Shown: positions 26,845 through 47,190 of the stretch, one piece after another
Layout: each line of letters opens with the position of its first letter
How positions within the stretch are numbered: the stretch's first letter is position 1
From: a bacterium
GTDB lineage: Bacteria > SZUA-182 > DTGQ01 > JBLIRR01
DNA: 64,000 bases
Assembly: GCA_049472395.1 (NCBI GenBank)
Contig: JBLIRR010000001.1
Coordinates: forward strand, 197,940-261,939
Reading direction: 5' to 3'
Program-made: the position numbers and the translations under genes
The notes under the pieces: generated by a model
What the model saw: the letters and a program-made list of their open reading frames with translations, nothing else
What the model was told of the DNA's origin: nothing
Database searches by the model: none

Positions 26845-28511
26845 CCTTGCTCACTATCTCCCATCCTGACTGCAAAGATAAAGATTATTATAAGTGTTTA
26901 CGTTCGTGCCCTCTAAAAGCCATAAAAATTAGCAAGGGCACAATGGAAATAGTGGAAGAGCGTTGTATTGCTGAAGGACTCTGTATTAATATCTGCCCTC
27001 AAGGCGCCATCCATGCCATTGGTGAACTGCATAAGGTAAAAAAATATCTGGATTCCGGTATCCGAGTTATCGCTAGTTTGTCACCGACCACTTTACTCAC
27101 TTTTAGTGATGCTCAAAGGTTCGAGGATGCCCTTAAAACCCTCGGTTTTTCGGAAGTAGTATATATGCAGGATGCCGCGGCTTCACTGGTTTTGGAATAT
27201 GGTCAATTATTATCCAAGGTAAGAAAGCCCCTCATTTCCTCCCATTGTCCGGCTATTTGTGAGCTTGTGGAAAGATTTGTCCCAAATGCCTTGAATTATC
27301 TTGCGCCCATTATTGACCCTGCAGTTGCTCATGCTCGTATTATCAAAGCACAACAAGGAGAGGACAGCCGCGTTGTTTACATAGGGCCCTGTCTTTCTCA
27401 GAGAACCAGAGAAGGAGATGCCCTGGATGCCGTATTAACATTGAATGAAATGGATAACTGGTTTAAGGAAACTGATATTCAGATCCCCATTATGACCTCT
27501 CAGGATATACTACCAGCAGAGTCCTTTGCAGGACTTCTTTCTGTTTCCGGAGGTCTGTTGTCACTCTTGGAGCTTAAAGAGGCAGCAGCTGGAGGAAACA
27601 GTATTTGTATTTCAGGAATGGAAGAGTGTTTGAAATTTCTGAAAAATTTGCCTCCTCCTGAAATGGGCTTTGAATTTGCAGAGCTTATGGCGTGCCATGG
27701 CGGGTGTATCGGCGGCCCTTTTCTTCGAACGAAATTTGATATAGTGAGTAGGAAATTTTTATTATCTCGTAATAAGCCTTCTCGTATCCCCGCACCAGTA
27801 TCACAGGTGAACCTTACGAGAAAACCTCAAGCCAGGCCCTTTGTAGCCCCAAAGACTAATCCGGAAGAAATAGATTATGTTCTGCGCCACTATACGAGCC
27901 ACCTTGATTGCGGAATGTGTGGTTATGAAACGTGCTTTCAGAAGGCAAAAGCAGTATGCGAAGGAATGGCTGACGTTGAGATATGTATGCCAATGATTCG
28001 AACGCAAGGACAAGAGACGCTCTCAATTTTGGAGTATACACCTAACGGAGTCATCCTCATTGACACGGATACTCGGATACGCTTTGCCAATCCATCATTT
28101 TTAAAAATGTTTAAATGTGAACGAAAAGATATACTCGGTGAGCCAATAGCCAACTTCATCCACTCCCATTGTTTTGAAGAGGCTATAAACAATAATATAA
28201 GCTCTCTTTTTAAAAGAACAATTCCTAAACTGGGCATTAGCTACCGCGCGTGTATTTTCCCAATAAAAGGAGCCTCTCTTTACTGCGGGATCATAAACGA
28301 TATATCGGAAGAAGAAAATGCGAGGCGAGAATTCGACAAAGTCAAGGATGAGACCTTAAACAGGGCTCAAGAGGTTATTGGACGTCAAATGAAAACAGCA
28401 CAGGAGATTGCCGGGCTACTAGGGGAGACAACTGCTGAAACGAAAGTTTTACTTGTAAAACTAATGAACCTCTTTAATGAGGAGGAATCTCCAGGTGAAG
28501 CTCTTTTATGA
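26841..28511 (+). CDS. [FeFe]-hydrogenase-like sensory protein with PAS domain (HydS/HfsB-like, group C)
   Basis: N-terminal ferredoxin-like Cys motifs. H-cluster-like motifs SSHCPAICE (L1), IGPCLSQRTRE (L2) and ELMACHGGCIGGPF (L3). An extra CGMCGYETC...C cluster and a C-terminal PAS-like region follow. The start overlaps the previous stop (ATGA). Confidence 0.7.
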   Translation: MTLLTISHPDCKDKDYYKCLRSCPLKAIKISKGTMEIVEERCIAEGLCINICPQGAIHAIGELHKVKKYLDSGIRVIASLSPTTLLTFSDAQRFEDALKTLGFSEVVYMQDAAASLVLEYGQLLSKVRKPLISSHCPAICELVERFVPNALNYLAPIIDPAVAHARIIKAQQGEDSRVVYIGPCLSQRTREGDALDAVLTLNEMDNWFKETDIQIPIMTSQDILPAESFAGLLSVSGGLLSLLELKEAAAGGNSICISGMEECLKFLKNLPPPEMGFEFAELMACHGGCIGGPFLRTKFDIVSRKFLLSRNKPSRIPAPVSQVNLTRKPQARPFVAPKTNPEEIDYVLRHYTSHLDCGMCGYETCFQKAKAVCEGMADVEICMPMIRTQGQETLSILEYTPNGVILIDTDTRIRFANPSFLKMFKCERKDILGEPIANFIHSHCFEEAINNNISSLFKRTIPKLGISYRACIFPIKGASLYCGIINDISEEENARREFDKVKDETLNRAQEVIGRQMKTAQEIAGLLGETTAETKVLLVKLMNLFNEEESPGEALL

Positions 28512-29640
28512 GTGCGCCCATGGCCAAATACCTAAGTTACATGAAGAATTGTGTGGCGACAGTATAGCATTTTCTTTTCAGCCCGATAAAGTGATTATGG
28601 TTCTTTCCGATGGTCTAGGAAGCGGCGTTAAGGCTAATATTCTCGCAACACTGACGACGCGCATGCTTACCCATATGTTAGATAATGAATTGCCTTTAAA
28701 CGAGGTTGTAAAAACAGTGACTGAAACCCTGCCTGTGTGCAAAATACGTGGGCTTGCATATAGCACCTTTTCAGTTGCCCAGCTTTTCTCCAACGGAGAA
28801 GGCCGGTTAGTAGAGTTTGATAATCCATCAGTTTTTTATTTTAAAAACAAAAATCTTGAAAAATTGAGTTGGAAATCCACTACCATATCAGAAAAAAATA
28901 TTAAGGCATGCTCCCTAAAATTACAAGCCGGTGATTGGCTCATTTTCGTGTCTGATGGAGTAATAAGTGCGGGCATAGGCGGTCTTTATTCCTTAGGATG
29001 GGGGTGGGAGAAGGTTGCCCAATACCTGCATAATCATCTCGTCGATACGACATCAGCTCAGAAAATTGTAGATACTGTATTAGAAGCGGTAAGCAACCTC
29101 TATGTAGGTCCTCCTGGGGATGATGTCACCGTGGCCGTGGTTAAGGTGCGCTCTAAACGATACTTGACAATATTATTCGGCCCTCCGCTTAATTCTAAAG
29201 CTGATCCCATTGTGGTAGAAGAGCTGATGAAATCCCCCGGCTGCCGGGTAGTCTGTGGAGGCACTACCGCAAATATTGTATCCCGATTTTTAGGTAAGCC
29301 GCTGCACGTGGACCTTCAGACAATCACAGATGAAGTGCCGCCTCTGGGGCATATGGAAGGCCTCGATCTTGTGACCGAGGGCGTTTTGACCATGACTCAT
29401 CTTGTCTCAATGCTCAAAAATGGGGTCTCTGCAGATTCAAAGGAATTTTCAATAGATAGCTCAAGTACCTTGCTGAGGATGTTGACAGAGGCGGACAGCA
29501 TCAGATTGCTTGTGGGACAAGCAAAAAATCCAGCGCATCAAGATCCGAAACTCCCGGTAGAAATTAAAACAGAGCTTGCCAGGGAACTTCAGGATGCTTT
29601 AAAAAAAATGAATAAGGAATGTTCCATAGATTTCTTTTAA
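28477..29640 (+). CDS. PP2C/SpoIIE-family serine/threonine phosphatase
   Basis: CGDSIAF...VLSDGLGSGVKA and downstream DG...D motifs of PPM phosphatases. A GTG at 28495 preceded by GAGGAGG may be the true start. It overlaps the HydS-like stop. Confidence 0.7.
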   Translation: MRRNLQVKLFYECAHGQIPKLHEELCGDSIAFSFQPDKVIMVLSDGLGSGVKANILATLTTRMLTHMLDNELPLNEVVKTVTETLPVCKIRGLAYSTFSVAQLFSNGEGRLVEFDNPSVFYFKNKNLEKLSWKSTTISEKNIKACSLKLQAGDWLIFVSDGVISAGIGGLYSLGWGWEKVAQYLHNHLVDTTSAQKIVDTVLEAVSNLYVGPPGDDVTVAVVKVRSKRYLTILFGPPLNSKADPIVVEELMKSPGCRVVCGGTTANIVSRFLGKPLHVDLQTITDEVPPLGHMEGLDLVTEGVLTMTHLVSMLKNGVSADSKEFSIDSSSTLLRMLTEADSIRLLVGQAKNPAHQDPKLPVEIKTELARELQDALKKMNKECSIDFF

Positions 29641-29658
29641 TAGTAGAAGGGGAAATGA

Positions 29659-30177
29659 ATGAAAAAAAAGCCAGAGAAAACCAATAAAAAAAATTCGTTT
29701 ATTCAAAAACTTTGCGAGCACTACAAGTGGAAAAAAGGTATGTTAATCCCGATGATGCAGGATATTCAAGAAGAATTTGGGTATCTTCCTGTCAAGGACC
29801 TCAAGGAATTATCATCAACATTGGACATTCCATTAAGTCAGATATATTCTGTGGCAACATTTTACGCAATGTTTCGCTTGGCACCACCCGGGGAACATCA
29901 GATTACCCTGTGCATGGGAACGGTTTGTTTTTTAAAAGGCGCAGGCAAAGTAGCCGAAGCCATACAAAAGGAATTTTCTTTAGAAGCTGGCGGCACAAGT
30001 CCGGACCGAAAATTCACCTTTAAACTTGTAAACTGTGTAGGAGCCTGTGCACTGGCTCCTGTTATGATAGTTGACGGGGCTTATTATGATGCAGTGACGC
30101 CAGATTCTGCTATTTCCATACTGCATGATATTGCAGAGGGCAAGACCGTTGCCAGCATGACGGCAAGTGGAGCATAA
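29659..30177 (+). CDS. NuoE-like [2Fe-2S] subunit of an NAD(P)-linked flavin oxidoreductase (HydC/HndA-like)
   Basis: Thioredoxin-like 2Fe-2S pattern CMGTVC...C...C with NuoE-like length. Confidence 0.8.
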   Translation: MKKKPEKTNKKNSFIQKLCEHYKWKKGMLIPMMQDIQEEFGYLPVKDLKELSSTLDIPLSQIYSVATFYAMFRLAPPGEHQITLCMGTVCFLKGAGKVAEAIQKEFSLEAGGTSPDRKFTFKLVNCVGACALAPVMIVDGAYYDAVTPDSAISILHDIAEGKTVASMTASGA

Positions 30178-30258
30178 ATGAACACAATAATTTTATACAT
30201 TTTACTATCATTTACGCTACTGCATAAGTAGCATTAAATCCAAGAAAAGGGGAACGCA

Positions 30259-32127
30259 TTGACTACAGCAACCACAATATTTCAAAGTGCAAAAGAGCTT
30301 AATGCCTACCGGAATGCCCTTAAAGAAAAAAGAAGTGGGAAAGAACGTAGTATAAGAGTGTGCATCGGGACAGGCTGTCAGGCTAAAGGCTCTTTAGATG
30401 TTTTAAAAATGTTTCAAAGGGCTGTGCGGGAATCCGACAAATCCGATATTCGAATTGAGACCAAATTTACAGGCTGCCATGGCCTTTGTGAGCTCGGGCC
30501 TATTGTGATTATAGATCCAGGAGAGATCATCTATCTCAGGGTACAACCGCACGATGTGGCTGAAATTTTTCGAGAAACTGTTCTCTTGGGACATATGGTG
30601 GAACGGTTTCTTTATCAAAAGGAAGCTGAAGGGGCCAGATATAAAACCCCTCACGAGATACCCTTCTATAATCTTCAAAAAAGGATTGTATTGGCGCTCA
30701 ACGGAGTAATCGATCCTACCAGTATAGATGACTATATAGCGCATGATGGGTATGAGGCCCTTGCCCAGGTACTCACTACTTACAAATCGGAAGAGATCAT
30801 TGAGATGATAGAACGCTCTCAATTACGAGGCAGAGGTGGGGGAGGATTCCTTACGGGCCGTAAATGGCGTACCTGTGTTCAGACAGGCCGCAGTCCCCGT
30901 TATGTGATCTGTAATGGTGATGAGGGTGATCCAGGCGCATTCATGGACCGTTCAATCATGGAGGGGAATCCTCATGCTGTCTTAGAAGGTATGATTATTG
31001 GAGCATATGCTATTGGGGCTCAAGAGGGCTTTATATATGTCCGTCACGAGTATCCTCTTGCGGTAAAACATCTTCAAATGGCTATTGATCAAGCCAGAGA
31101 AATAGGACTTTTGGGTGAATCCATTTTAGGCACGGATTTTAACTTTGATGTCACAATAAACCGTGGTGGTGGTGCATTTATCTGCGGAGAATCCACGGCG
31201 TTAATGGCCTCTCTCGAAGGCCGAGTCGGAGAACCCCGTGCAAAATATGTCCATACGGTAGAATATGGGCTCTATGATTGTCCGACAACCCTTAACAATG
31301 TTGAAACATGGGCAACTATACCGGCGATTGTGCGCAATGGACCTGAGTGGTTTACCTCTATTGGCACAGAACGCAGTAAAGGCACAAAGGTATTCAGCCT
31401 AGTTGGAAAAGTCAATAATACAGGACTTGTCGAAGTACCTATGGGAATGACACTCAAAGAGATTATCTATGGAATAGGCGATGGTGTAAAAGGCGGACGC
31501 CCCTTTAAAGCCGTTCAAACAGGAGGTCCTTCCGGAGGGTGTCTTCCGGAATCATTAATAAATCTGCCGGTTGATTTTGACCGCCTTACCGAAGCAGGCT
31601 CCATGATGGGTTCAGGCGGCATGATTGTGATGGATGATTCGACCTGTATGGTTAATGTGGCAAAATATTTTTTAGATTTTCTTAAACAAGAATCCTGCGG
31701 GAAATGTACTCCTTGCCGTGAAGGCATCGCACAGATGCTTCATATCCTCACGCGTTTGACAAAAGGCAAAGGAGAGGAGGGTGATATTGAAAGGCTTGAG
31801 GCCCTGGGAGAACTTTTAGCGGATGCTTCTTTATGTGCATTGGGGAAAAGTGCGGCCAACCCGGTTCTTTCCACACTTCGCTACTTCCGTGAAGAATATG
31901 AAGAGCATATCCGCAAAAAGCACTGTCCTGCACTTGAGTGTCCGGGACTATTCCGTTATGAGATTGTTGCGGAACTGTGCAAAGGATGCGGGATATGCCT
32001 TAAAAAATGTCCGATGGATGCCATTACGGGGGAGAAGAAAAAAGCACATACAATAGATCAGGAAAAATGTACTCAATGCGGGGCCTGCTTCTCAAAATGC
32101 CCCTTTACAGCAATAAAAAAAATATAA
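30259..32127 (+). CDS. NuoF-like NAD(P)H-binding FMN/[4Fe-4S] subunit with an N-terminal 2Fe-2S domain and C-terminal 2x[4Fe-4S] (HydB/HndC-like)
   Basis: GRGGGGF, GDEGDPGAF and ESCGKCTPCREG motifs plus C-terminal ferredoxin motifs. TTG start after AAAGGGGA. Confidence 0.85.
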   Translation: MTTATTIFQSAKELNAYRNALKEKRSGKERSIRVCIGTGCQAKGSLDVLKMFQRAVRESDKSDIRIETKFTGCHGLCELGPIVIIDPGEIIYLRVQPHDVAEIFRETVLLGHMVERFLYQKEAEGARYKTPHEIPFYNLQKRIVLALNGVIDPTSIDDYIAHDGYEALAQVLTTYKSEEIIEMIERSQLRGRGGGGFLTGRKWRTCVQTGRSPRYVICNGDEGDPGAFMDRSIMEGNPHAVLEGMIIGAYAIGAQEGFIYVRHEYPLAVKHLQMAIDQAREIGLLGESILGTDFNFDVTINRGGGAFICGESTALMASLEGRVGEPRAKYVHTVEYGLYDCPTTLNNVETWATIPAIVRNGPEWFTSIGTERSKGTKVFSLVGKVNNTGLVEVPMGMTLKEIIYGIGDGVKGGRPFKAVQTGGPSGGCLPESLINLPVDFDRLTEAGSMMGSGGMIVMDDSTCMVNVAKYFLDFLKQESCGKCTPCREGIAQMLHILTRLTKGKGEEGDIERLEALGELLADASLCALGKSAANPVLSTLRYFREEYEEHIRKKHCPALECPGLFRYEIVAELCKGCGICLKKCPMDAITGEKKKAHTIDQEKCTQCGACFSKCPFTAIKKI

Positions 32128-32142
32128 TGAGATGGAGAGATT

Positions 32143-32943
32143 ATGCCGACGATTATTATTGATAACAAACCTTATGAGGCAAAAACAGGCGAAACAATAT
32201 TAGAGGTCGCCATACGGGAAGGGATTTGGATACCGACATTATGTTATCATCCATCCTTGAGGGGATATGCTGCCTGCCGCCTATGCCTGGTAGAAATTGA
32301 CCGGGGGAGCTGGCGGCAAATCGTCACATCCTGCAATTACCCTATACGCAAAGATATAAAAGCCTGGGTAAATTCTGAGCGCGCCCTTAAGGCTCGCAAG
32401 GGAGTCATGGAGTTGCTCCTGGCCCGCAGTCCTGACAGCCAAGAACTCAAGACACTCGCTGAGCGAATGGGAATATATAGCACCTCATATCCGAAGGTGA
32501 CCGAATCACAAAGGAATTGTATACTATGCGGTTTATGCACACGGGTCTGCGCTGAGGTCATAGGGCAGTCAGCTATCAGCCTCTCAGGCCGCGGAGTGGA
32601 AAGAGTTGTGTCGACCCCTTTTCAATTGGCATCTGATCAATGTATTGCCTGTGGAGCATGTGCGTCCATATGCCCCGTTGGTACCATACAAATCAGAATG
32701 CATGATGAAGAGATAGAGATTTCACCTTTTAAGTCAAAGGTGCCCATGCCCCGGTGTCGTGAATGCGGCAAACATCTTGCCAGTTCCAAGGTCGGTGAAA
32801 AAGTAATGGAATTGTTATCAGATAATTACCCTGATGAGACCCTGAAATCACTTAAAGAAATAATAATGTTATGTCCTGACTGCAGACGAAAAAGATCGGC
32901 CGAGGCTCTTCCTAAAAGCTATAGCGACCTTTTATGTTGTTAA
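32143..32943 (+). CDS. NuoG/HydA N-terminal-like FeS protein (2Fe-2S plus two 4Fe-4S) lacking any catalytic domain
   Basis: N-terminal [17 protein letters not shown]...CYHP..C..C 2Fe-2S ferredoxin, followed by [11 protein letters not shown] and [12 protein letters not shown]. It is only 266 aa and ends in a Cys-rich tail (CRECG...CPDC). Confidence 0.6.
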
Positions 32944-34299: not shown

Positions 34300-36063
34300 T
34301 TAAAACAGCCCCTTCACTTTACCAGTATTTACATCCACATCAATTCGTCGAAAGGCGGGGTCAGACGCCGTACCAGGCATTAATTTAATAGAGCCTGCCA
34401 AAGGTACTAAAAATCCAGCTCCCTTATACGTCAGGATATCACGAATCGGCAATGTCCATCCTTTCGGCCTTCCTTTGATATCAGGGTCATGACTTAAACT
34501 GAGGTGCGTTTTCACCATACAGATACCAAGCTTTGATCCCTCAGGGTCTTTGCTGATATTATCCAGTTTCTCAAGTGCTGCCGGTGCAAAGTGCACTCCA
34601 TCTGCCCCATACACCTCTTTTGCAATAAGCTCTATTCTCTCTTTCATCGGGGTAGTGTCTTCATAGAGGAATTTAAATTCATTTCCCGCATCACAGGCAT
34701 CAATTACCGCATCAGCAAATTCCAAAGCCCCATCTCCGCCTTTTAGCCAATGAGAAGACACTGCTGCTTTGGCACCTGCTCCCTCCGCAGCTTTTCTTAC
34801 AATACCTATCTCTGCGTCCGTATCAGTGTAAAAACTATTAATACATACAACCGGATTAATCCCTGCTTTCTTAACCGTCTCTATATGAGCAATGAGATTT
34901 TCGCACCCTTTCTCTACCAATGCGCAATTCTCACTCGTATATGCCGCGGCAAGAGGCGCTCCCGGCCTCACTGCAGGCCCGCCTCCGTGCATCTTTAACG
35001 CGCGAACCGTCGCGACAATTACTGCGCAATGAGGTTTAAGAGCGCTAAAACGACATTTAAGATTCCAAAATTTCTCAAAACCTATATCAGCCCCAAATCC
35101 GCTTTCTGTTACATGATAATCCGAAAGCTTCAATCCTACCTGATCCGCAATAATAGATGATTGTCCTATAGCAATATTTGCAAATGGCCCTGCATGTACC
35201 ATCACAGGCTGGCCCTCAATAGACTGAAGCAGATTCGGATTTAGGGCTTGCACCATCCATGCCGTCATTGCCCCGTCAACCTCAAGATCTTTGGTGGTTA
35301 TGGGATCACCCGATTTGCTGTAAGCCACAATAATTTTGCCCATTCTTTCTCTCATATCCTTAAGGCTTGTTGAGACAGAAAGGATAGCCATAATCTCAGA
35401 GCTCACCGTAATGGCAAATCCTGAATTCATCATAAATCCATCCATTTTCCCGCCTTGTCCAATGGTAATATCTCTCAGGGATTGCGCGCAAAAATCCATT
35501 ACCCATCTCATCTCGACATTTCTCGGGTCAATATTGAGCCGCTTCAGATTCCTCTTGGCAAGGGCGGCATCGTTATAATTAAATTCATGCTGAAGACGTG
35601 AGGTGAGAGCCACCATTGCAAGATTATGAGCATTTGTTATCTTATCTATATCTCCGGTAAGCCCCAAAGAAAATGGTGTAAGAGGGATACACTGGGCAAG
35701 GCCTCCCCCTGCAGCACTTCCTTTAATATTAAATGTCGGGCCCCCGGAAGGCTGGCGAATCGCTCCTGTGACATTTTTCCCCCTTTTTCCAAGCCCCTGC
35801 ACCAAGCCCATGGAGCTTGTGCTTTTCCCCTCCCCCAATGGGGTAGGAGTAATGGCCGTCACATCAATATATTTACCTTGTGGCCTGTCTTTCAGCCGAT
35901 CTAATACTTTGATAAAATCAATCTTTCCAAGATAATGACCCATCGGAATAAGCTCATCAGAAGTAAGCCCCAGTTCCTCTGCCAATTGGTTCACTGTCTT
36001 CATACTCTTTTCTGCATCTTCTGCAATTTCCCAATCTGCGTGTTTGGTTGGATCTAATGCCAT
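34300..36063 (-). CDS. fhs: formate--tetrahydrofolate ligase
   Basis: 587 aa with P-loop-like [13 protein letters not shown] and the overall FTHFS pattern. Confidence 0.9.
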
Positions 36064-36189: not shown

Positions 36190-36669
36190 TTATTTCCAGA
36201 TATAATTTAAAAGCTCTGCAAACTTATCATTCATATCGCGGAGCAAAGAACTCATGGTAAGGGCCACCTTTTTCATGATTTTATACCCGCAAAGGGGATT
36301 GTCCTCAACCAGTTTGTCAAACTTCTCCCGCTCTATCACTATTAATTTCGTTGGATTAATAACCTCAGCTGTTGCAGAATGGCTCCTTCTGTCAAAAAAA
36401 GAAAGCTCCCCAAAAAAATCTTCCTTTTCCAATAAGGCGAGGGTTTGTCGCTCTCCGTTTGAGAGAATCCGGCTGATTCTTACTTTGCCATTATAGATGA
36501 TAAAGAACTTATCCCCCTGCTCATGTTCTTTAAAGATTATTGTCCCCGCTTCATACTCTTTTAATTCTGAAATTGAGGCAATCTGAGATAATTCTTCATC
36601 AAAGAAATTATAAAAAAATGTTAATTGCCGCAATATATCTTTTTCCATTTTTTTGTTATTCTCCTTCAT
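36190..36669 (-). CDS. standalone cyclic-nucleotide-binding (cNMP/CAP-family) domain protein with no DNA-binding domain
   Basis: IIFKEHEQGDKFFIIYNGKVRI...FFGELSFF matches the CAP-type cNMP-binding fold. At 159 aa it has no HTH. It overlaps the fdhA stop by 14 nt. Confidence 0.65.
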   Translation of the reverse strand: MKENNKKMEKDILRQLTFFYNFFDEELSQIASISELKEYEAGTIIFKEHEQGDKFFIIYNGKVRISRILSNGERQTLALLEKEDFFGELSFFDRRSHSATAEVINPTKLIVIEREKFDKLVEDNPLCGYKIMKKVALTMSSLLRDMNDKFAELLNYIWK

Positions 36670-39322
36670 TAATTTTTTCTATATTTATAGCGCACACTTT
36701 ATATTCAGGGATCTTGGATACAGGATCTCGTGCGGAATTGGTTAAAAGATTTGCCGCTGCTTCATGGAAATGGAAGGGAATAAAAACCACCCCACGCGCA
36801 ACCCGAGGAGAAACTTTCGCTTTGAGCGTTATCTGTCCCCTGCGGGAGACTGCCTTCACCATCTGCCCATTTTGTATATCCAAAGAGGACGCATCATAAT
36901 CAGAAATCTCCATATAGGGCTCGCCACAGATTTCATCCAGTCCGGATTTACGCGTCATAGTTCCTGTATGGAAATGAAACAACATTCTCCCTGTGGTTAA
37001 AATAAAAGGATAGGATGCATCTCTTTCTTCTGCCGACGGTATATACTCAACAGGTATAATATTCTTTTTGCCCGCTGTATGGAGAATCGGCACTCCCGGA
37101 TCATTTTCACTTGTGCAGGGCCATTGCAGTCCGCCCTTCTCCAAGCGGTCATAACTTATGCCGGCATAAATCGGTGTCACTGAAGCGATTTCTTTCATAA
37201 TCTGGGAGGGGTGGGAATAGTCCATAGGATAGCCCATTTCAGTTGAAATATCACAGATTATCTGCCAATCCGGTTTTGCCTGGCCGGGGGAGGGAAGAGC
37301 CTTACGGACTAATTGGACGCGTCTTTCGGTATTGGTAAATGTACCATCCTTCTCAGCATAACTGGCAGCAGGCAATACAATATCTGCACGCTGGGCTGTT
37401 TCGGTTAAAAATATATCCTGCACCACAAAAAATTCCAATTTCTTGAGTATTTTCTCAAGATGCCCAATATCAGGATCTGAAAGCATGGGATTCTCTCCCA
37501 TAATAAAAAGGGCCTTGATCTCACCCCGGTCTATTGCCTCCATCATCTCCATAACCGTGAGCCCTGGTTTTGTTGAAAGAGTGCTTTTCCACGCATTTTG
37601 GAATTTTTGTGCCACTTCTATATCGCTCACCGCCTGATAACCCGGATATACATTCGGGAGGCAGCCCATATCGCAGGCTCCCTGAACATTATTTTGGCCA
37701 CGAAGCGGATTAACACCACTTCCCGGTTTTCCGAGATTCCCTGTTATTAAAGCAAGATCCGCCACGGCTTTCACATTATCCGTCCCTGTTATATGCTGTG
37801 TAATGCCCATTGTATAAAATATGGCAGCAGATTCTGCCTGAGCATACATTCGTGCTGCCTCACGTATCTGATTAGCCGGAACCCCTGTAGTGGATTCAAC
37901 ATAGTCTGGCGTATATTTTTTTAATGTTTCCTTAAGCTCCTTAAAACCCGTGGTGCGTTCCTTAATAAATTTTTTATCTTCCAAGCCTTCCTCGACAATC
38001 ACATGCATTATACCATTAAGCATCGCCACGTCTGTTCCGGGAATCTGACGAAGATAAATAGTTGCCCATCTGGCCAGATCTATTCTTCGAGGGTCGACTA
38101 TTATAAGCTTCGCGCCCTTTTTCCTTACGGCCTCCTTTATCTTAAGCCCGATTATCGGATGTGCCTCTGTCGTATTAGAACCAATAACAAGGATTACGTT
38201 CGCATCGACAATATCGGCAATGGAATTTGTCATTGCTCCGCTCCCCAATGTTGCGACCAGACCGGCCACTGTCGGAGCGTGTCAGAGCCGTGCACAATGA
38301 TCGACATTATTTGTGCCGATAACCGCCCTCATCCATTTCTGAAAAAGATAGTTTTCTTCATTGGTACATTTTGCCGAACTTAATCCTGCTATGGCATCTG
38401 CTCCATATTTATCCTTTATCTCGACGAGCCTTTCAGCGATCCTCATATACGCTTCATTCCACTCCATCGGGTCAAATCCCTTATAGGATTTACCAAGAGG
38501 AGTGGTTAGCCGCCTCTTGGAGGAAATAAACTCATACCCGAATCTCCCCTTACTGCAGAGATACCCTTCATTGACTGACTCCTCAGGGGAGGTAATCCGA
38601 ACAATCTCATCATCTTTTAACTGAAGTGCTAATTGGCACCCGCACCCACAATAGGGACACGTCGTTACAACTTCTTTTAATTGCCATGTTCTTCCCTTAT
38701 ATTTGGCAAGCTTCGAAGATAACGCACCCGTTGGGCACACGGCAACACATTGACCGCAAAATTCACAATCAAGAGGCTGATTAAACGCGGTTCCTATCCT
38801 TGTCGTAAAGCCTCTTTCTATAAAATCAATACCGCCTACTCCCTGGACCTCATCACATATACGAACGCATCGTCCGCATAAAATACATTTACCATGATCT
38901 CTCAGTATAAAAGGGTTAGTATCATCTACCGGATACTTATTCCTCTCTCCCTGAAATTTGTAGATATCAACCCTATATTCATAAGCGAGATCCTGAAGCT
39001 CGCATGATCCGCTCTGGTCACAGACAATAGACTCAAAAGAATGATCTGAGAGAATAAGTTCCAAGTTGGTCTTTCGAGCTGCCATTATTCGTTCGGATGT
39101 CGTATGGATTACCATATTTTCAGCTATCGGAGTAGCGCACGCCGGGACCAGCTTTGGAATTCTCTCCACTTCAACAAGACAAATTCTGCATGCTCCAAAA
39201 GGAGCAAGATGGCGATAATGACAGAGCGTTGGAATTCTAATGTTATTTTCCTGACATACCTCAAGAATCGTGGCGCCAAGTTCAGCATATACACGTTTCC
39301 CATCAATGTTTAATGTAATCAT
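36656..39322 (-). CDS. fdhA: formate dehydrogenase catalytic subunit (NuoG-like N-terminal FeS domains plus molybdopterin domain), a selenoprotein with an in-frame UGA at 38282-38284
   Basis: Track ORFs 38282..39322 and 36656..38269 are in the same frame and are separated only by TGA. The local sequence [30 protein letters not shown] is the canonical FDH selenocysteine motif. selB is present in the window. Confidence 0.85.
38230..38281 (-). other. SECIS-like stem-loop immediately 3' of the fdhA UGA codon
   Basis: mRNA CAC-GCUCCG-ACAGUGGCCGGUCUGGUCGCAACAUUGGGGA-CGGAGC. The 6-bp stem GCUCCG/CGGAGC starts 3 nt after UGA, and the apical region contains GGUCUG as in the E. coli fdhF SECIS. Confidence 0.45.
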
Positions 39323-41013
39323 TGCCTCTTTCTCTCGACTTTATTCTGTTCTGCCTGTTCGTTAATAGAATCCTCATATTCTTTTCTAAAATACCTTATG
39401 GTGGAAAGTACCGGATTGGGGGCTGTTTGACCAAGCCCACAGAGGGCTGTGTCCTTAATATGGGTTGAAAGCTGAAGAAGAGTATCAATATCAGATAATT
39501 TTCCCTCTCCGGCAATAATACGATTTAAAATCTCGAGCATTCTTTTTGTTCCTATTCTGCACGGAACACATTTTCCACATGATTCACTCTGTATAAAATC
39601 CAAAAAATAGCGTGCAATATCCACCATGCTCGTCTTATCATCCATGACAATCATCCCGCCAGATCCCATAATAGCTCCGATACTTACCAGAGAATCATAA
39701 TCAATTGGCACGTCAAGATGCTCGGCAGGCACACATCCTCCGGAGGGGCCACCAAGCTGAACGGCCTTAAAGGTTCGGCCTCGCGGAACGCCTCCTCCAA
39801 TATCATACACAACTTTTCGGATAGGAGTTCCTAATGCAACCTCCACCAAACCTGTATTCTTAATCTTTCCCGCAAGGGCAAATACTTTGGTCCCCCTATT
39901 GTTCTCTGTTCCTATACTCGCGTATCGCTTTGCCCCTTCCCTTATAATTATAGGCACATTGGCAAATGTCTCTACATTGTTGATATTCGTTGGCTTTCCC
40001 CATACTCCCTTGTGAGCGGGAAAGGGTGGACGAGGCCTTGGCATCCCTCGTTTACCCTCAATTGAGGCTATGAGTGCTGTTTCCTCTCCACACACAAATG
40101 CCCCGGCGCCTTCCTTGATAATTAAATCAAAATTAAAATCAGCCCCCAATATACGCTCCCCGAGTAATCCCCATTCCTTGAGTGTTGAGAGAGCACTCTT
40201 TAAATGTTTTATCGCGATCGGATACTCAGCTCTCACATATACATATCCATGCTCAGCACCAATGGCATAGGCTGCAATTAACATCCCCTCAATAACTGCA
40301 TAAGGATCACCCTCTAAAATGGCACGATCCATAAAGGCGCCGGGGTCTCCCTCATCTGCATTACAAATGATGTATTTAGGCCAATTATTTGATTGACGGC
40401 AAAATTGCCATTTAAAGCCGGTGGGGAATCCTCCCCCTCCCCTGCCCCTTAGCTCTGATGCTTTTATGATTTCAATGACTTGTTCCGGAGTATATTCACG
40501 AATTACCTTGGCAAGAGCGGAAAATCCATCTTCACGCAAATAATGTGTAATATCAGTGGGATTAATCCGGCCACAATTTTTAAGGACTAATTTTGTTTGA
40601 TGCTTATAAAACGGGATGTCCTGTAAATATGGATATTCTTTCTTTTCTTTACTGTCCTGATAGACTAAGCGGGATATAATTTTCCTGTTCAACACGGTCT
40701 CATCAATAATCGTGGGCACATTATCAGGTTGAACCTTCTGATAAAATATTTCCTTATCAAGCTCAATAGCTATTACCGGCGCCTGAGAACAGAAGCCAAA
40801 ACATCCTGTCTCTATAAGAGATACTTTTTCCGTAAGATTTCGGGATTGAAGCTCTTCTACAAACCTGTCACGTACTTCCTGCGCACCATATGCAAGGCAT
40901 CCTGTCATACAAATTCTGATAGTAATTTTATTGGGGTCGATCGCCTTCTTGAGCTCTGCAACCTTTTCATCAAACCCCTCTAATGAGTTTATTTTATTTT
41001 TCATACAGATCAC
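39319..41013 (-). CDS. NuoF-like NAD(P)H-binding FMN/[4Fe-4S] subunit of the NAD-dependent formate dehydrogenase
   Basis: GRGGGGFPTG, GDEGDPGAF and SESCGKCVPCRIG motifs with an N-terminal thioredoxin-like 2Fe-2S domain. It overlaps the fdhA start. Confidence 0.85.
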   Translation of the reverse strand: MICMKNKINSLEGFDEKVAELKKAIDPNKITIRICMTGCLAYGAQEVRDRFVEELQSRNLTEKVSLIETGCFGFCSQAPVIAIELDKEIFYQKVQPDNVPTIIDETVLNRKIISRLVYQDSKEKKEYPYLQDIPFYKHQTKLVLKNCGRINPTDITHYLREDGFSALAKVIREYTPEQVIEIIKASELRGRGGGGFPTGFKWQFCRQSNNWPKYIICNADEGDPGAFMDRAILEGDPYAVIEGMLIAAYAIGAEHGYVYVRAEYPIAIKHLKSALSTLKEWGLLGERILGADFNFDLIIKEGAGAFVCGEETALIASIEGKRGMPRPRPPFPAHKGVWGKPTNINNVETFANVPIIIREGAKRYASIGTENNRGTKVFALAGKIKNTGLVEVALGTPIRKVVYDIGGGVPRGRTFKAVQLGGPSGGCVPAEHLDVPIDYDSLVSIGAIMGSGGMIVMDDKTSMVDIARYFLDFIQSESCGKCVPCRIGTKRMLEILNRIIAGEGKLSDIDTLLQLSTHIKDTALCGLGQTAPNPVLSTIRYFRKEYEDSINEQAEQNKVERKRQ

Positions 41014-41025
41014 TTTTTATGTGGA

Positions 41026-41535
41026 TTAGGTTTTATATCTATCAATTATATTTCCCACCTTCTCAGGAGTAAGTTTTCCATAGTAGGTATCATTTATAAG
41101 GGCGACCGGAGCAAGGGCGCAGGTTCCGAGGCACGCTACCGTCTCAAATGCAAATTTCATGTCAGCCGTTGTTTCCCCATCTTTTATTCCTAGCAGCTCC
41201 TCAAAAGCATCGACAACTTCCTTCCCTCCTCTTACATGACATGCTGTCCCGCGACACATTCTTATTATATATTTACCCCTGGGCTCAGTATGAAATTGTG
41301 CATAAAAACTTATCACGCCGTATATTCTGCTTGAAGAAATATCCAGCTTCTCAGAAAGAAAAAACACAACCTCAGGCGGAAGGTATCCGAATATACCCTG
41401 GGCTTTTTGCAAAACCGGTATCAAATTCCCCTCTTTCCCCTTATACTCAGCAACCACGCTTTCCAATGCACTCCGCTTTCCAGATTCTTTTATGGGACTG
41501 TCCGCTCTCTTCACGCCCTTTTTCTCATCCCCCAT
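41026..41535 (-). CDS. NuoE-like [2Fe-2S] subunit
   Basis: CRGTAC...C...CLGTC thioredoxin-like ferredoxin pattern, 169 aa. Confidence 0.8.
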   Translation of the reverse strand: MGDEKKGVKRADSPIKESGKRSALESVVAEYKGKEGNLIPVLQKAQGIFGYLPPEVVFFLSEKLDISSSRIYGVISFYAQFHTEPRGKYIIRMCRGTACHVRGGKEVVDAFEELLGIKDGETTADMKFAFETVACLGTCALAPVALINDTYYGKLTPEKVGNIIDRYKT

Positions 41536-41550: not shown

Positions 41551-43758
41551 TTACATAAGAGGGGGTAAATTAAGTGCAGGATGATTCACTTTTTGCATAA
41601 ACTCCATGACCTCTTCCTCTGTAGAGCCCACATCCTCATCAGCAATCTTTGAGAGAAAATCATCCGCACCAAGTTCTTTACCACGTGCATCTATCATGGC
41701 GCCTATTTCCTCTTTGAGGCATTTGGGCACCCATGCTAAGCGGAGTATACCGCCTTCTGCTGATATAAATTTTTTACTGCCGATATAGTGCTTACTATGA
41801 CCCACAAAACCTGGAGTCTGTAATCCTCCACCAACAGAGCCAGCCAATGTAGAAAATTTCATCCCGACTGGTGTCATGCCTGCATACTCCCTGTTTACTG
41901 TCATTACTGCATTGGCCATTGGCAAAAGGCCGGAAATACATTCAAAACAGCCACAAGAGGTCATGGGGTCTTCCATCATGCTATATGCATTAAAGCGTTC
42001 CAGGGTATGTCTCGACGCAGTGTAGAGAAACTCATTCACTCCCTGCCATTGCCCTTTTTTCTCATCAACCGTCGAGCCCTTCTTTATCGGTTGATTAGGT
42101 CCTGTGGGATCAATTTGATGAGCAGCCTTTCCATCGAGCCAGTTATAGGCACCACATAGTCCGCTTCGTTCAGGGGTAATAACGCACACATGATTCGGGG
42201 CGAAAGATTGACACAAGGTGCAAGAATAATATGTATCAACACCCTCATCGGTCAGGTTACTGATTCTGTCATCACGATGATGGTACGCAGCCCTGGCCTC
42301 TTTCCGGGCCTTGAGTACATCCTCCTCCTTGGTATATATAGTCACCGCCACCTTATCAAGGATAGCAGCATAATCCCCATGAAGTTTTGCATGAAGAATA
42401 TCACCCAGATGATGAAGTTTAAATCCTTTTTTAACCGCCTCTTTCCCTATCCTGATCCAGCTTATGTCCCTTTGCCCCATGTGGAATACTCCCTGGGCCT
42501 CATTAAAAAATCGGTGAACCTGGCGCTCAAGAATCGGCTCAAAATCCTCTTGCATCTTCCTGCCGGCCACCTCGACCACAACCCCTAACGGCAGGCGGGA
42601 ACCTTCGGATATATCATCAATCTCAGGACCTATGATTTTAATATACCCATCCTCAACCTCTTTCATATCTTTCATGCGCACATATTCAAATGCAGGGGTT
42701 TTCTGACCTCCCATCTCAACATAGGTATCCTCTTTTCGTATACGCTCACCTTCAAATGCCGGGCCATAAGCCACGGGTACCGGGACCTCGGTTATTGTAA
42801 TTTTTAAACCACGAACCTCAATCGCCTTGGCAACCATCTCATCGTGAGGAATGTTTGATACTACATGTTCATACGTGCACACACCAGTAGGGAGAATCTG
42901 AGGTATATCAGTATCGGCAATGGTTGGAAAACCATAATTAATAGCACCGGCAGCCTGGGCATATTTCTCATCATCGACCTCTCCAAGCGCCAATACAAAA
43001 GCAAATATCCTATCTTTATTATAATGCAGGATCTTTTTAAAATCGCCACCCTTGGCCCCGCCAAAGGACATGGCTGCTCTTGTGGCAAAACCTATGGCAA
43101 ACACAGCAGCAGTAATATCTTTGCCAAAGGGTACAAGCCGGGTCTCCCAGCCCATCTGCACTCCCTCTTCCGCTAATTGTTCTGCCATGGTTTTCCCATG
43201 GGTCTCTCCGGCCATAAATACATAGAGATTTTTCTGTTGGAGCTCCCGTGCTATCATAACGGCGATCTCATTGGTGGGAGCTGCCCCTACACATGCAGCA
43301 AACCCAGGGGCAGAGCCATCGACAAACTCAATTCCTCTTTTTCTCATAATAATATCATCTGCCGCCCCAAGCCAGATAGGCCCTCCTTCCGGACAATTTT
43401 CCGTAATACTGTAAGGAACCGGGTCGTCAAGATACTTTATACACTCTATTACCTCATCAGCAAATAACGTTCCCATGCCTGCGTCAAGGCCTTTGCCCAA
43501 ATAAGGAAGCCACACGTGCTCACTCGGCACCTCGGGCAGCAGTCCTCTAATGATTGTCATGACGGGTTTCAAATCCCCTAGCGTCTCCACCTTAAGACCC
43601 AATATTCCATATATAATAGGCAGATAATAACCGGTATTGGGCAGCTCAACTTTCTGGTCCGGCCCGAATTTATCAATCGCCTCATTTAAGGCTTTCTCTG
43701 CTCTATTTGCAATTTTATGGGCACCTCGTATAACTCCTGAAAGAATAATCTTAGACAT
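41551..43758 (-). CDS. acsB: acetyl-CoA synthase (CODH/ACS complex ACS subunit; A-cluster protein)
   Basis: CTLCQSFAPNHVC and A-cluster CGCFECI (Cys-Gly-Cys) motifs. 735 aa. Confidence 0.9.
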   Translation of the reverse strand: MSKIILSGVIRGAHKIANRAEKALNEAIDKFGPDQKVELPNTGYYLPIIYGILGLKVETLGDLKPVMTIIRGLLPEVPSEHVWLPYLGKGLDAGMGTLFADEVIECIKYLDDPVPYSITENCPEGGPIWLGAADDIIMRKRGIEFVDGSAPGFAACVGAAPTNEIAVMIARELQQKNLYVFMAGETHGKTMAEQLAEEGVQMGWETRLVPFGKDITAAVFAIGFATRAAMSFGGAKGGDFKKILHYNKDRIFAFVLALGEVDDEKYAQAAGAINYGFPTIADTDIPQILPTGVCTYEHVVSNIPHDEMVAKAIEVRGLKITITEVPVPVAYGPAFEGERIRKEDTYVEMGGQKTPAFEYVRMKDMKEVEDGYIKIIGPEIDDISEGSRLPLGVVVEVAGRKMQEDFEPILERQVHRFFNEAQGVFHMGQRDISWIRIGKEAVKKGFKLHHLGDILHAKLHGDYAAILDKVAVTIYTKEEDVLKARKEARAAYHHRDDRISNLTDEGVDTYYSCTLCQSFAPNHVCVITPERSGLCGAYNWLDGKAAHQIDPTGPNQPIKKGSTVDEKKGQWQGVNEFLYTASRHTLERFNAYSMMEDPMTSCGCFECISGLLPMANAVMTVNREYAGMTPVGMKFSTLAGSVGGGLQTPGFVGHSKHYIGSKKFISAEGGILRLAWVPKCLKEEIGAMIDARGKELGADDFLSKIADEDVGSTEEEVMEFMQKVNHPALNLPPLM

Positions 43759-45694
43759 TTTCTAATTCCCTCCTTTTTGCCATATCAAATAGAACACGTT
43801 CTCTCTTCTCCTTAATTCCGAGAGCCTCTCTCTTTTGGTTTATATGGTCGATCATTAATTGTGCCATTTTATAAGGATCTGCTTCTACTGCCCAGGAGCC
43901 CCCCAATTCTTCACTCAATTCCTTGAATAGGTGCTCTTTAAAAAGCTTACTCCCTTCTACCGGAAGCCCAATACCAAAGACGGTGAATACTCCGCTTGCC
44001 ACAAAATACTGGCCAATTGCTATGGCTTTCTCGCTCATCCATTCAGGAGCCGCACCAGCTACAGGAAGCTCGCTTATATCATTGCCAAGCCCACCCTCAG
44101 CTACCATATTACACGCGGCAATTAAGATTCTGCTATTATCTACGCAGGAGCCGGCATGAAGCACCGGTGGCATACCTACTGCTTCACACACCTCACGAAG
44201 GCCCGTGCCTGCATATTTTATAGCCTCCGGAATCATCAAGCCATCTTTTGCGCAGGCAATAGCTGAGCATCCTGTCTGAACAACAAGGACGTCGTTTTTG
44301 ATTAACTCGCGCACTAATATCGTATGAATTGTATCGTAGCTTACTTTTGGATTATTACATCCGACAACACCGGCTACTCCCCGTATTCTTCCATCAATAA
44401 TGGCGTCATTGAGCGGTCGGTAGGATGAACGAAAACGCCCGCCTAACATGTAATTGATTGTCTCATGACTAAAACCGGCGACGAGGTCCATACTATCTTT
44501 CGGGATAATAACTTTACCCCGTTTGGGATAATTTTCAATTGCCCTTTTGATGATTTCTTTAGCAGTCGTCACAGGATCATGTTCCTCAAATTGAATATGC
44601 ACAGCGCCCTCCATATGGGCCCTTTCATTGGTGGTTATAATCTCGGTATGAAAACATCCTGCAACAGTGGGAAGTGATTGCATAATACATTGAACATCAA
44701 CAATCATGGCTTCTACTGCTCCGGTCATGATAGCAAGCTCTTGCTGCAGGAAGTTCCCTGCAATCGGTATACCATGGCGCATAAGTATCTCGTTGGCGGT
44801 ACAGCAAATCCCCGAAATATTTATGCCTTTTGCACCCTTTGATTTGGCAAGATCAAGCATCCCCTTATCCTGTGCTACCATGACAATCATTTCTGATAAA
44901 AGAGGCTCATGCCCATGAACAATAATATTTACCTCGTCTTTCTTGAGTACTCCAAGATTCACCTTGGCCCGTAAGGGTTCAGGGGTCTTAAACAGGATAT
45001 CCTGAAGCTCTGTGGCAATCATTGAACCTCCCCACCCATCAGCAAGGGCTGCTCGTGAACCCTGCCGCATAATACTCTTATAATCCTGATCAACACCCAT
45101 ATGCGTCCGGTGAAGACATTCGACAATTTCCCTATCAACACCGCGGGGAGATACCCCAAGATTTTCCCAAATCTCCTGTCTCGCCTTGGGCGCTCTTTTC
45201 AAGAACCTAAGCATGCCCTCTTGACGCCCAAATTCAGCAAGGGCTATTGTGCCAACCTCTTGCGCTATCTGATTTTTGTCCTTTCCCTCGGTTTTTATCC
45301 CCCATTCCTCTGCTATGGCCATTAATTTGGCTTCATCCTTAATCTCATACCCCGGGACTTTCCCTTGCGCCGTTGCCAAAAAGGTCTGCGCCACCCCTCG
45401 GCCATGATCCGAATGAGATGCGGCACCAGCTGCTATCATTCTAAGAAAATTTCGAGCTGCTATCGTTTCCGCTGTTGCTCCGCATACGCCTTTTGATGCA
45501 CCCTCTCCAAAAGGATCTATACGGCATGGGCCCATAAAACAGATCCTGCAACAAATCCCAAGTTCTCCAAAACCACACGAGGGGGATTGATCATTATGCC
45601 TGTCCCATAGCGTAAATATCGACTTTTCTTTAGCTTGTTTTATCATCTCTAAAGAAGTCTTACACTTAGTAATTTTGTTCTCACTATCTCTCAT
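43751..45694 (-). CDS. acsA: anaerobic carbon-monoxide dehydrogenase catalytic subunit
   Basis: N-terminal CGFGELGICCRICFMGPCRI B/D-cluster motifs and C-cluster ligands. 647 aa. It overlaps acsB by 8 nt. Confidence 0.9.
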   Translation of the reverse strand: MRDSENKITKCKTSLEMIKQAKEKSIFTLWDRHNDQSPSCGFGELGICCRICFMGPCRIDPFGEGASKGVCGATAETIAARNFLRMIAAGAASHSDHGRGVAQTFLATAQGKVPGYEIKDEAKLMAIAEEWGIKTEGKDKNQIAQEVGTIALAEFGRQEGMLRFLKRAPKARQEIWENLGVSPRGVDREIVECLHRTHMGVDQDYKSIMRQGSRAALADGWGGSMIATELQDILFKTPEPLRAKVNLGVLKKDEVNIIVHGHEPLLSEMIVMVAQDKGMLDLAKSKGAKGINISGICCTANEILMRHGIPIAGNFLQQELAIMTGAVEAMIVDVQCIMQSLPTVAGCFHTEIITTNERAHMEGAVHIQFEEHDPVTTAKEIIKRAIENYPKRGKVIIPKDSMDLVAGFSHETINYMLGGRFRSSYRPLNDAIIDGRIRGVAGVVGCNNPKVSYDTIHTILVRELIKNDVLVVQTGCSAIACAKDGLMIPEAIKYAGTGLREVCEAVGMPPVLHAGSCVDNSRILIAACNMVAEGGLGNDISELPVAGAAPEWMSEKAIAIGQYFVASGVFTVFGIGLPVEGSKLFKEHLFKELSEELGGSWAVEADPYKMAQLMIDHINQKREALGIKEKRERVLFDMAKRRELENV

Positions 45695-45837: not shown

Positions 45838-47190
45838 CTAAGAGGCGACATTATAAGACCGCAAAAACTTAGGAATATTGACCGCCTCTCTCGGCCCTAC
45901 CTGTATTTTCCAGCCAGGCAACTCTTCTTCGATCTCCCCTGACAATATGGCTACATAGCCCGGAATCACAAGTTCGCGATGTTTCAAATGCCCTTCCATA
46001 TTATTATTTTTTACTAACTTAGCTATCTTCGGCGCATTAAACTTATCCGCTGCCCAGGCAGTGAGCACTGACATGCCTTCACAATCAGCAACAAGCATCC
46101 ATGACGGCACTTTGCTCTCCTCTACTTCCCCCAACACAATAAAATAGGTAAGTGAAAAATTTGTCGTAATAAGAAGGGGTGAGTTTTCATCCGCATCGCC
46201 TATCTTATAAAGCTTTTCCTCAACTTGCATCGGCTGTTGCGGATCGGTAAAAATATTTTGCCTCACTGTAAATAAGGGAAGAAGTACTTCCTTTGACACA
46301 TCATCGATCACTACTATTGAGGCATACTTAAGAATTCCTATGCATGCACGCGCAGTGGCAAGGTCCGCATCATCAGTGTCTTCTGACGCCCACGCGATAG
46401 TGGGATACCCTAAGGCTTTAAATTTCTGTTTAATAGCGGCCCGTCGTATCTGAGTCATATCAGAAAGCTGGCTACCAGCCTTTCTGCCGCCGGAATCCAA
46501 AACTAAATCCTCTACACCAAGGGAAGCTGCCTTTTCTGCTAACGCGGCTAAAGCCTCGAGCCCTTCCGCTTTTATAACAAGAGGGCACCCCTTTGATTTC
46601 GCAAGACTCGCCATAGCATCAATAGATTGCTCTGTTGCCGCATAGAGCAGTGGCTTTCTCTCAGCGACAATTTCCAACCCAGCTTCTATTACTTTGTTAT
46701 CAGGTGCCGACAGGATCAGCGGCTTCTTGGTCTTTTCTGCGACCTGTTTCACCATTTGTTGATACTTTTGGGGATCTTGTGAGCATGATGTTAAGCAGAG
46801 CATTTCTACCCGCAACTTTTGGCCTACACGCTCAATTTCCGAATCCTCAACAGCCTGCACTTTTCTCTCAATCTCCTCGCGTGAGGACGTATCCTCAATA
46901 TTTGCCGCAAGGATTGTCGGGTGGTTGAATTTTTTTTCATGCCGAAAAAGAACCGTCTCATCACCAATCTCAACTGCTTCTTCGCCCTGACCAAGCTTAA
47001 TTAAACGAATGGGCGGCGCTGATGCTGCGCCCAAAAACTGCGTGGCTTCATCCGATACATAGGGACAATCACTCAGCTTTGCCTGGGCTGATGCGAGTCT
47101 CATGGCAAACGCAAGGCATGTAGGAAAATGACACTCCCCGCAATTTTTTTTCGGTAAATATTTAAAAATCTGGATACCAGTCAATGCCAT
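45838..47190 (-). CDS. acsC: corrinoid iron-sulfur protein large subunit
   Basis: N-terminal CGECHFPTC...C [4Fe-4S] motif followed by a TIM-barrel and a B12-binding-like region. Confidence 0.85.
   Translation of the reverse strand: MALTGIQIFKYLPKKNCGECHFPTCLAFAMRLASAQAKLSDCPYVSDEATQFLGAASAPPIRLIKLGQGEEAVEIGDETVLFRHEKKFNHPTILAANIEDTSSREEIERKVQAVEDSEIERVGQKLRVEMLCLTSCSQDPQKYQQMVKQVAEKTKKPLILSAPDNKVIEAGLEIVAERKPLLYAATEQSIDAMASLAKSKGCPLVIKAEGLEALAALAEKAASLGVEDLVLDSGGRKAGSQLSDMTQIRRAAIKQKFKALGYPTIAWASEDTDDADLATARACIGILKYASIVVIDDVSKEVLLPLFTVRQNIFTDPQQPMQVEEKLYKIGDADENSPLLITTNFSLTYFIVLGEVEESKVPSWMLVADCEGMSVLTAWAADKFNAPKIAKLVKNNNMEGHLKHRELVIPGYVAILSGEIEEELPGWKIQVGPREAVNIPKFLRSYNVAS

Follow-up and report, generated by a model that had tools for sequence, protein, structure and literature searches.

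A formate dehydrogenase gene with an in-frame UGA, probably decoded as selenocysteine, in a Wood-Ljungdahl operon of an unclassified bacterium

The 64,000-nucleotide stretch analysed here (contig JBLIRR010000001.1 of GenBank assembly GCA_049472395.1, positions 197,940 to 261,939; hereafter the window, from whose first letter all coordinates are counted) comes from a bacterium of the lineage SZUA-182 and contains, on the minus strand, two consecutive open reading frames (ORFs), 38282-39322 and 36656-38269, which together resemble a formate dehydrogenase (FDH) and are separated by a TGA. Are these two genes, the remains of one, or a single gene in which UGA encodes selenocysteine (Sec), and with which electron partner would the enzyme work? 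With a probability of about 0.92, we read 36656-39322 as one fdhA gene, whose UGA would be decoded as Sec in a manner dependent on the elongation factor SelB and a downstream hairpin, and whose product would be the formate enzyme of the Wood-Ljungdahl pathway.

One reading frame across a UGA codon

The two ORFs lie in the same frame, with the TGA at 38282-38284 as the sole separator, as the first-pass annotation of this DNA had proposed from the letters alone. Translation of 36656-39322 on the minus strand yields 889 codons with one internal stop, corresponding to an fdhA gene of 888 codons for the alpha subunit of a Sec-containing formate dehydrogenase/CO2 reductase. The 537-aa ORF starting with GTG that appears in the ORF list is an artefact of the listing, the fdhA frame being open immediately past the TGA. 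The start of fdhA overlaps the stop codon of the preceding NuoF-like gene (ATGA), which suggests translational coupling between the two. A six-frame scan of the window returned 10 spots at which at least 80 open codons flank one stop on either side; the fdhA junction was the only one of them that lies on a coding strand and is spanned by a protein domain, and the scan found no further pair of long ORFs in the window bridged by UGA.

For homology searches, the UGA was replaced by a Cys codon. The resulting product matched the Pfam domains Fer2_4, NADH-G_4Fe-4S_3, Fer4_Nqo3, Molybdop_Fe4S4, Molybdopterin and Molydop_binding, so that its N-terminus constitutes a NuoG-like iron-sulfur (FeS) region with one 2Fe-2S, one His-ligated 4Fe-4S and two further 4Fe-4S clusters, and the Molybdopterin domain (residues 271-694) extends unbroken across UGA codon 347. 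The NCBIfam equivalog TIGR01591 (Fdh-alpha) was matched over its entire length (model positions 1-672 of 672) with 891 bits against a cutoff of 666.25, and the best solved relative was FdsA of Rhodobacter capsulatus (6tg9_A, E = 1.9e-225, residues 3-883 aligned). The selenoprotein of roughly 888 residues, with a NuoG-like N-terminus and with NuoF and NuoE encoded next to it, that had been postulated in the first-pass annotation is therefore borne out by the Pfam and NCBIfam domains as well as by the position of the UGA.

Indeed, the UGA, which is followed by the catalytic His348, falls on the alignment column of the catalytic Mo/W-ligand Cys/Sec. This column is occupied by Cys in FdsA (CARVCHSPT), by Sec (given as X) in the F420-dependent FDH 9t1s_L, and by Cys in 119 of the 119 top full-length database homologues (55-61% identical); U347-H348 accordingly matches the C-H of FdsA and the X-H of 9t1s_L, and PLRGQNNVQG, the motif of the active-site Arg, is likewise conserved between the aligned proteins. 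The end-to-end alignment of the joined translation to FdsA, which had been suggested as a check, placed no residue other than Cys or Sec at this position. FdhF of Escherichia coli has the same CAR-x-U-H motif, with S/T-V-A-G-L two residues after U-H in both proteins; unlike the window FdhA, it lacks the NuoG-like N-terminus and is part of the formate-hydrogen lyase complex.

The UGA is also conserved among relatives. Of the 39 related loci found in GTDB genomes, TGA stands within HCARL*H in 15, and TGC or TGT takes its place in 8. Metagenomes were scanned for DNA encoding HCARL[U/C]HxxTVAGL, and the matches were pooled with the loci in hand and with the window to give a set of at least 135 distinct motif sequences, the counts of which are not abundances. 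Among the matches listed, 104 of 135 carried TGA (including the window itself and 14 of the 15 TGA genome loci), and 31 of 135 carried TGC or TGT.

The window further encodes a complete Sec-specific elongation factor, as had been noted earlier: selB, at 4631-6568 on the plus strand, matches TIGR00475 with 362.6 bits (cutoff 242) and includes the C-terminal winged-helix domains SelB-wing_2 and SelB-wing_3, which bind the selenocysteine insertion sequence (SECIS). From the column, its conservation and the selB of the window, we infer Sec insertion at UGA347.

A hairpin maintained in UGA-type genes

The segment downstream of the UGA folds into a three-tiered hairpin (-23.2 kcal/mol), of which the first-pass annotation had emphasised the outer stem, GCUCCG (38278-38273) paired with CGGAGC (38240-38235), which begins 3 nucleotides (nt) past the UGA and consists of 6 perfect pairs. 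The innermost tier, at 38253-38269, is a mini-helix made up of GUGGCC (38269-38264), the loop GGUCU (38263-38259) and GGUCGC (38258-38253), with the 6-bp helix starting 12 nt and the loop 18 nt past the UGA, and it is written in the codons of the peptide V-A-G-L-V-A. The same stretch has a conserved peptide to encode, and constraint on RNA was therefore separated from constraint on protein by comparing the 104 UGA-type with the 31 Cys-type genes, which encode the same peptide.

Only one tier stood out in this comparison. Among the matches listed, 96.2% of the cells of the inner helix (columns 19-24 with 30-35) were paired in the UGA-type genes and 62.9% in the Cys-type genes, and the mean number of consecutive pairs counted from the loop was 6.3 versus 1.9. 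The Gly codon of the loop was GGT in 90 of 104 UGA-type genes versus 9 of 31 Cys-type genes (p = 2e-9), and TTR was used for Leu in none of the former and in 6 of the 31 latter. Within the UGA class, two pairs of the helix at wobble positions covary, the first occurring as C-G (70), U-A (14) and A-U (14) and the second as G-C (77), A-U (8), C-G (7), G-U (7) and U-A (3), with 47 two-sided compensatory cells in total; the covariation score of the inner helix was reached in 0 of 500 shuffles. The inner helix is thus kept by selection beyond the demands of the encoded peptide. The comparison of UGA-type and Cys-type genes at an identical peptide is possibly reusable as a control for distinguishing RNA-level from protein-level constraint on SECIS elements located in coding regions.

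The mini-helix at 38253-38269 is presumed to be the element bound by SelB. The consensus for bacterial SECIS (bSECIS) elements comprises an apical loop of 3-9 nt, an upper stem of 4-16 bp, a G among the first two loop positions and a distance of 16-37 nt from UGA to loop (PMC13188914), and the window hairpin, with its 5-nt loop GGUCU starting with GG, 6-bp stem and spacing of 18 nt, falls within all of these bounds. It also fits the description of SECIS elements as stems of 6-8 bp that have a conserved G some 20 nt downstream (PMC4605307). In fdhF of E. coli (MG1655), which has the SelB-dependent mechanism in common, the GGUCU of the Gly-Leu codons is found at the identical offset, 18 nt past the UGA. 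The E. coli fdhF hairpin is depicted as having a bulged U below a GGUC tetraloop, whereas the window helix has a 6-bp stem with no bulge and a 5-nt GGUCU loop; in the SECIS hairpin of Moorella thermoacetica, a C-G pair closes the GGUCU loop.

Several observations weigh against this picture. The genes selA, selD and tRNA-Sec are not in the 64,000-nt window, in which ARAGORN finds no tRNA. Taken by itself, the folding energy of the complete hairpin falls short of significance (z = -1.69; 13 of 200 shuffles fold equally well), and the mean minimum free energy is about -19 in both classes (-19.2 in UGA-type and about -19 in Cys-type genes); for both reasons we discarded whole-hairpin folding energy as evidence. 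The Rfam model SECIS_3 (RF01989) aligns with the UGA and the lower stems included (38229-38287, minus strand) over the whole model (positions 1-59; local E = 1.3e-11), but its 52.6 bits stay below the gathering score of 63. When 10 loci of each class were scored, the UGA-type loci ranged from 36.8 to 52.6 bits, all below the threshold, with the window the highest among all loci tested, and the Cys-type loci from 22 to 38.8; since Cys-type genes reach 22-39 bits, much of the SECIS_3 score reflects coding conservation. With the same region encoding a conserved peptide, the energy is a weak line of evidence and the SECIS_3 match weak support. Finally, the lower helices of the window fold are not conserved: the outer GCUCCG/CGGAGC stem is paired in 52% of UGA-type cells versus 73% of Cys-type cells, and we therefore rejected this and the other lower stems as a functional element. 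Of the SECIS-like hairpin described in the first-pass annotation, then, the loop at the canonical distance and a selected inner helix stand, whereas the stem on which the emphasis had been placed does not; likewise, the proposed folding and comparison with the SECIS model gave agreement with the bSECIS bounds and neither a significant energy nor a score above the Rfam threshold.

Taken together with selB, the mini-hairpin suggests a mechanism in which a ribosome reaching UGA347 would be met by SelB (4631-6568) carrying Sec-tRNASec and bound to the hairpin through its C-terminal winged helices. SelB would then compete with release factor 2 to deliver Sec, the hairpin having been accommodated within the conserved V-A-G-L-V-A codons through the choice of synonymous codons. 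In the enzyme, Sec347, His348 and the conserved Arg of PLRGQNNVQG would make up the active site at the metal-pterin.

Two further observations come from outside the window. On the metagenomic contig Ga0272441_10004182, a distance of about 8.5 kb separates two distinct UGA-type FDH genes (L101:629-669(+) and L101:9183-9223(-)), with a GGUCU hairpin in each. A 1405-aa protein from the Logan assemblies (P0002) consists of a tandem pair of NuoG-fused FDH-like units, of which the first lacks the Cys/Sec-His motif (DSHLRIEH) and the second is apparently truncated or rearranged.

The operon and the electron partner

The fdhA gene is the ninth in a minus-strand run that starts with a MinD/CooC-like ATPase (49027-49785) and continues with acsE (48213-48992), acsD (47241-48182), acsC (45838-47190), the carbon monoxide dehydrogenase (CODH) gene (43751-45694), acsB (41551-43758), a NuoE/HydC-like 2Fe-2S subunit of 169 aa (41026-41535; PF01257, 3.1e-52) and a NuoF/HydB-like flavoprotein subunit of 561 aa (39319-41004), which has a thioredoxin-like 2Fe-2S N-terminus, a site for flavin mononucleotide (FMN) and NAD(P)H, and an N3-type 4Fe-4S cluster. 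Downstream of fdhA follow a 159-aa protein consisting only of a cyclic nucleotide monophosphate (cNMP)-binding domain (36190-36669) and fhs, encoding formate-tetrahydrofolate ligase (34300-36063; PF01268, 6.8e-227; NF010032, 1111 bits). Given the location of fdhA between acsB/CODH and fhs, the enzyme would supply, or in reverse remove, the formate of the methyl branch: FDH would make the formate used by Fhs or, running backwards, consume it. Electrons would run along the FeS chain of the alpha subunit to the FMN of the NuoF-like subunit and from there to NAD(P)+/NAD(P)H, and the complex would include the NuoE-like 2Fe-2S subunit. The metal of the pterin site would be Mo or W.

On the electron partner, the earlier description, an NAD-linked and Fds-like arrangement, needs some refinement. 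The FdsGBA(D) enzymes of R. capsulatus and Cupriavidus necator (6tg9, 6vw7) have the same set of NuoE-like, NuoF-like and NuoG-fused subunits, and FdsB, like the window NuoF-like (B) subunit, lacks the clusters of the ferredoxin branch. The Fds enzymes use Cys, whereas the window enzyme would use Sec in an anaerobic Wood-Ljungdahl context, and no FdsD-like match was found among the window ORFs scanned. The B and C subunits are not orthologues of FdsB and FdsG, both being nearer to HydBC/Bfu. This affinity and one residue of FdhA are points against the preferred reading. The B subunit is nearest to HydB types (7t2r_B, E = 2e-217) versus E = 1e-115 to 1e-125 for FdsB, which is only its 10th-12th best PDB match, the best ones being Bfu-type B subunits; the NuoE-like (C) subunit has its best PDB matches in HydC (8a6t_C and 7t2r_C), with FdsG far lower. 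With bifurcating enzymes as the nearest matches of both subunits, the nucleotide partner is uncertain. In addition, residue 98 of FdhA is Ser (TCT, 39029-39031, minus strand; one base from TGT) at a position that is Cys in 119 of the 119 top full-length homologues and in 51 of the 51 other motif loci and that provides the second ligand of the H-x3-C-x2-C-x5-C His-ligated [4Fe-4S] site in the NuoG-like domain. Ser98 is identical in both Logan assemblies of this locus and probably real, and the electron path may therefore differ from that of the model enzymes.

One explanation for the affinity of the B and C subunits would be that the Sec-FDH works as an electron-bifurcating Type 1 Fdh-Bfu, coupling NAD(P)H and reduced ferredoxin to the reduction of CO2. 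NADH alone is a poor reductant of CO2, and the two subunits are far nearer to HydBC, NfnBC and StnBC than to FdsBG. PF01257 matches both the B and C subunits and the pterin domain is fused to the BfuA-like part, as expected of Bfu enzymes. The predicted bifurcating FDH of this type (e.g. from Carboxydothermus hydrogenoformans; PMC9304861) has the same gene order (BfuC-BfuB-BfuA) and likewise carries its pterin domain as a fusion to BfuA, and it is fully matched by four UGA-type relatives (L004, L034, L040 and L041), whose FDH-linked NuoF genes bear all Bfu hallmarks, retaining every B2-cluster ligand and the B3/B4 domain. A complete BfuB/BfuC pair and a BfuA-like protein without catalytic domain are encoded just 7 kb away, at 29659-32943.

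The cluster ligands of the window B subunit argue otherwise. The B2 ligands C438, C476 and H525 (numbering of A. mobile HydB) are replaced by S459, I497 and S546, C531 and C536 are missing, and so is the C-terminal 2x[4Fe-4S] domain that holds B3 and B4: the protein ends 15 residues past the position aligned with H525, where its relatives and the second NuoF of the window have a tail of 81 residues. The cysteines of the N-terminal 2Fe-2S cluster B5 (CMTGC...CFGFC) are present. According to Schut et al. 2022, the B2 His is absent in only 8 of 1558 BfuB, and from non-bifurcating homologues, and every Bfu enzyme retains all five B clusters (PMC9304861). The bifurcation core is thus incomplete, and an assignment to Bfu from the top PDB matches was rejected after this check of the ligands. 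With the B2-B4 cluster sites missing, we infer no ferredoxin coupling; bifurcation by this enzyme appears unlikely, and we lean towards a complex that would be derived from Bfu, non-bifurcating and NAD(P)H-linked. Hence, the NAD-linked part of the earlier description remains the best reading, whereas its Fds-like part gives way to a Bfu-like ancestry of the subunits.

The second NuoF (30259-32127, plus strand) is a full BfuB type that keeps the B2 ligands (C/T/H) and the C-terminal ferredoxin domain. It is part of a plus-strand module that comprises a PAS-domain protein resembling [FeFe]-hydrogenase (26841-28511), a PP2C/SpoIIE-like phosphatase (28477-29640), a second NuoE-like gene (29659-30177) and, past this NuoF, a 266-aa FeS protein consisting only of a NuoG N-terminus, with no catalytic domain (32143-32943). 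The module (26841-32943) has the appearance of a regulatory unit with a sensory hydrogenase, placed next to a Bfu core without an obvious domain for a third substrate. It is conceivable, albeit quite improbable, that the FDH module is a recently 'de-bifurcated' Fdh-Bfu that could cooperate with this stand-alone core. In that event, the core could, for example, dock on or exchange with the FDH, resulting in a CO2 reductase switchable between NAD(H)-only and ferredoxin-coupled modes in a deep-branching, uncultured organism, and the steps of de-bifurcation would have been deletion of B3/B4, replacement of three B2 ligands and C98S in the alpha subunit.

Other FDHs differ in their partners. The NADP-dependent W/Se FDH of M. 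thermoacetica has a Sec-containing, NuoG-fused FdhA and serves the Wood-Ljungdahl pathway of an acetogen, with a partner subunit different from that of the window. The FDH of the closest Cys-type relative (P0001, 61% identity; L043:1375-4608) comes after a 1077-aa NuoF-GltD/Pyr_redox_2 fusion, a partner likewise unlike the one in the window, and before fdhD and a MobA-like gene.

Other readings of the UGA and the annotation of the locus

Three explanations would dispense with Sec altogether. If the UGA were a true stop, the locus would be a pseudogene or would encode a 346-aa FeS protein and a separate C-terminal protein initiated at the ATG at 38233-38231. Gene prediction on the Logan contigs yields precisely this pair of pieces, and a Shine-Dalgarno-like GGGGAG is located 7 nt upstream of this first downstream ATG. 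However, the corresponding stretch, GGxAGCGGxGCxATG, represents the codons of the conserved peptide G-S-G-A-M and is also found in Cys-type genes, and the split would cut the Molybdopterin domain and strip the catalytic Sec/His from the C-terminal piece. Unlike in a pseudogene, the TGA persists across 15 related genomes and at least 104 motif sequences over 40-60% protein divergence; moreover, the UGA class carries the selected hairpin, and selB is present. We regard a true stop as very improbable.

Scarcely credible is a sequencing or assembly error in which TGA replaced the TGC or TGT of a Cys-type FDH, for which it can be said that the closest full-length database homologues are all Cys-type and that one base change suffices. 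Contigs assembled in Logan from two independent read sets (SRR29850981 and DRR851379) show 0 mismatches to the window over 2603 and 1618 nt including the UGA, and the flanking synonymous sites bear the signature of the UGA class (GGT-CTG and the 6-bp helix), which is mostly missing in Cys-type genes. A genome-wide reassignment of UGA to Gly or Trp (codes 25 and 4) with plain read-through, to which an unclassified, deep-branching host might lend some appeal, has a negligible chance and is effectively refuted, since TGA ends 8 of the 49 long ORFs of the window at positions expected from family models, so that the code is standard, only the fdhA pair is bridged by TGA, and the UGA stands on a Cys/Sec rather than a Gly or Trp column.

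The preferred reading, a single Sec-encoding fdhA, is a textbook arrangement with a SECIS of the classical fdhF type, and is correct rather than new. Among bacterial selenoproteins, none is more widespread than FdhA (PMC13188914), and the annotation in GenBank (PGAP) very probably already carries this one as a single Sec protein. Exact sequence look-ups identified DapL (MGA1867087), Fhs (088), NuoF (091; the NuoF-like protein is identical to MGA1867091.1), NuoE (092) and AcsB (093) in one run of accessions, which leaves exactly MGA1867089 and MGA1867090 for the cNMP-binding gene and fdhA. The joined FdhA with X at the UGA had no exact match in the protein collection. The longest ORF of the cNMP-binding protein overlaps the end of fdhA by 14 nt, and its exact sequence is absent from the same collection; the annotated start of this gene probably differs from that of the longest ORF. 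Naive ORF calling, as in the Logan calls, splits fdhA into fragments of 346 aa and about 540 aa and thereby conceals the enzyme with which the methyl branch of the Wood-Ljungdahl pathway begins, whereas the joined pieces would complete a contiguous operon of CODH/acetyl-CoA synthase (ACS), FDH and Fhs and mark the host as a selenium user.

The host lineage is poorly sampled: the nearest relatives of its AlaS are 66% and then about 55% identical, under names that mix '[bacterium]', Nitrospirota, KSB3 and Proteobacteria, and the best FDH identity in the scan of GTDB genomes was 57%, with no close FDH in any GTDB representative. A 6S (SsrS) RNA at 1243-1422 on the plus strand (74.3 bits) is the only Rfam match in the window above its gathering score.

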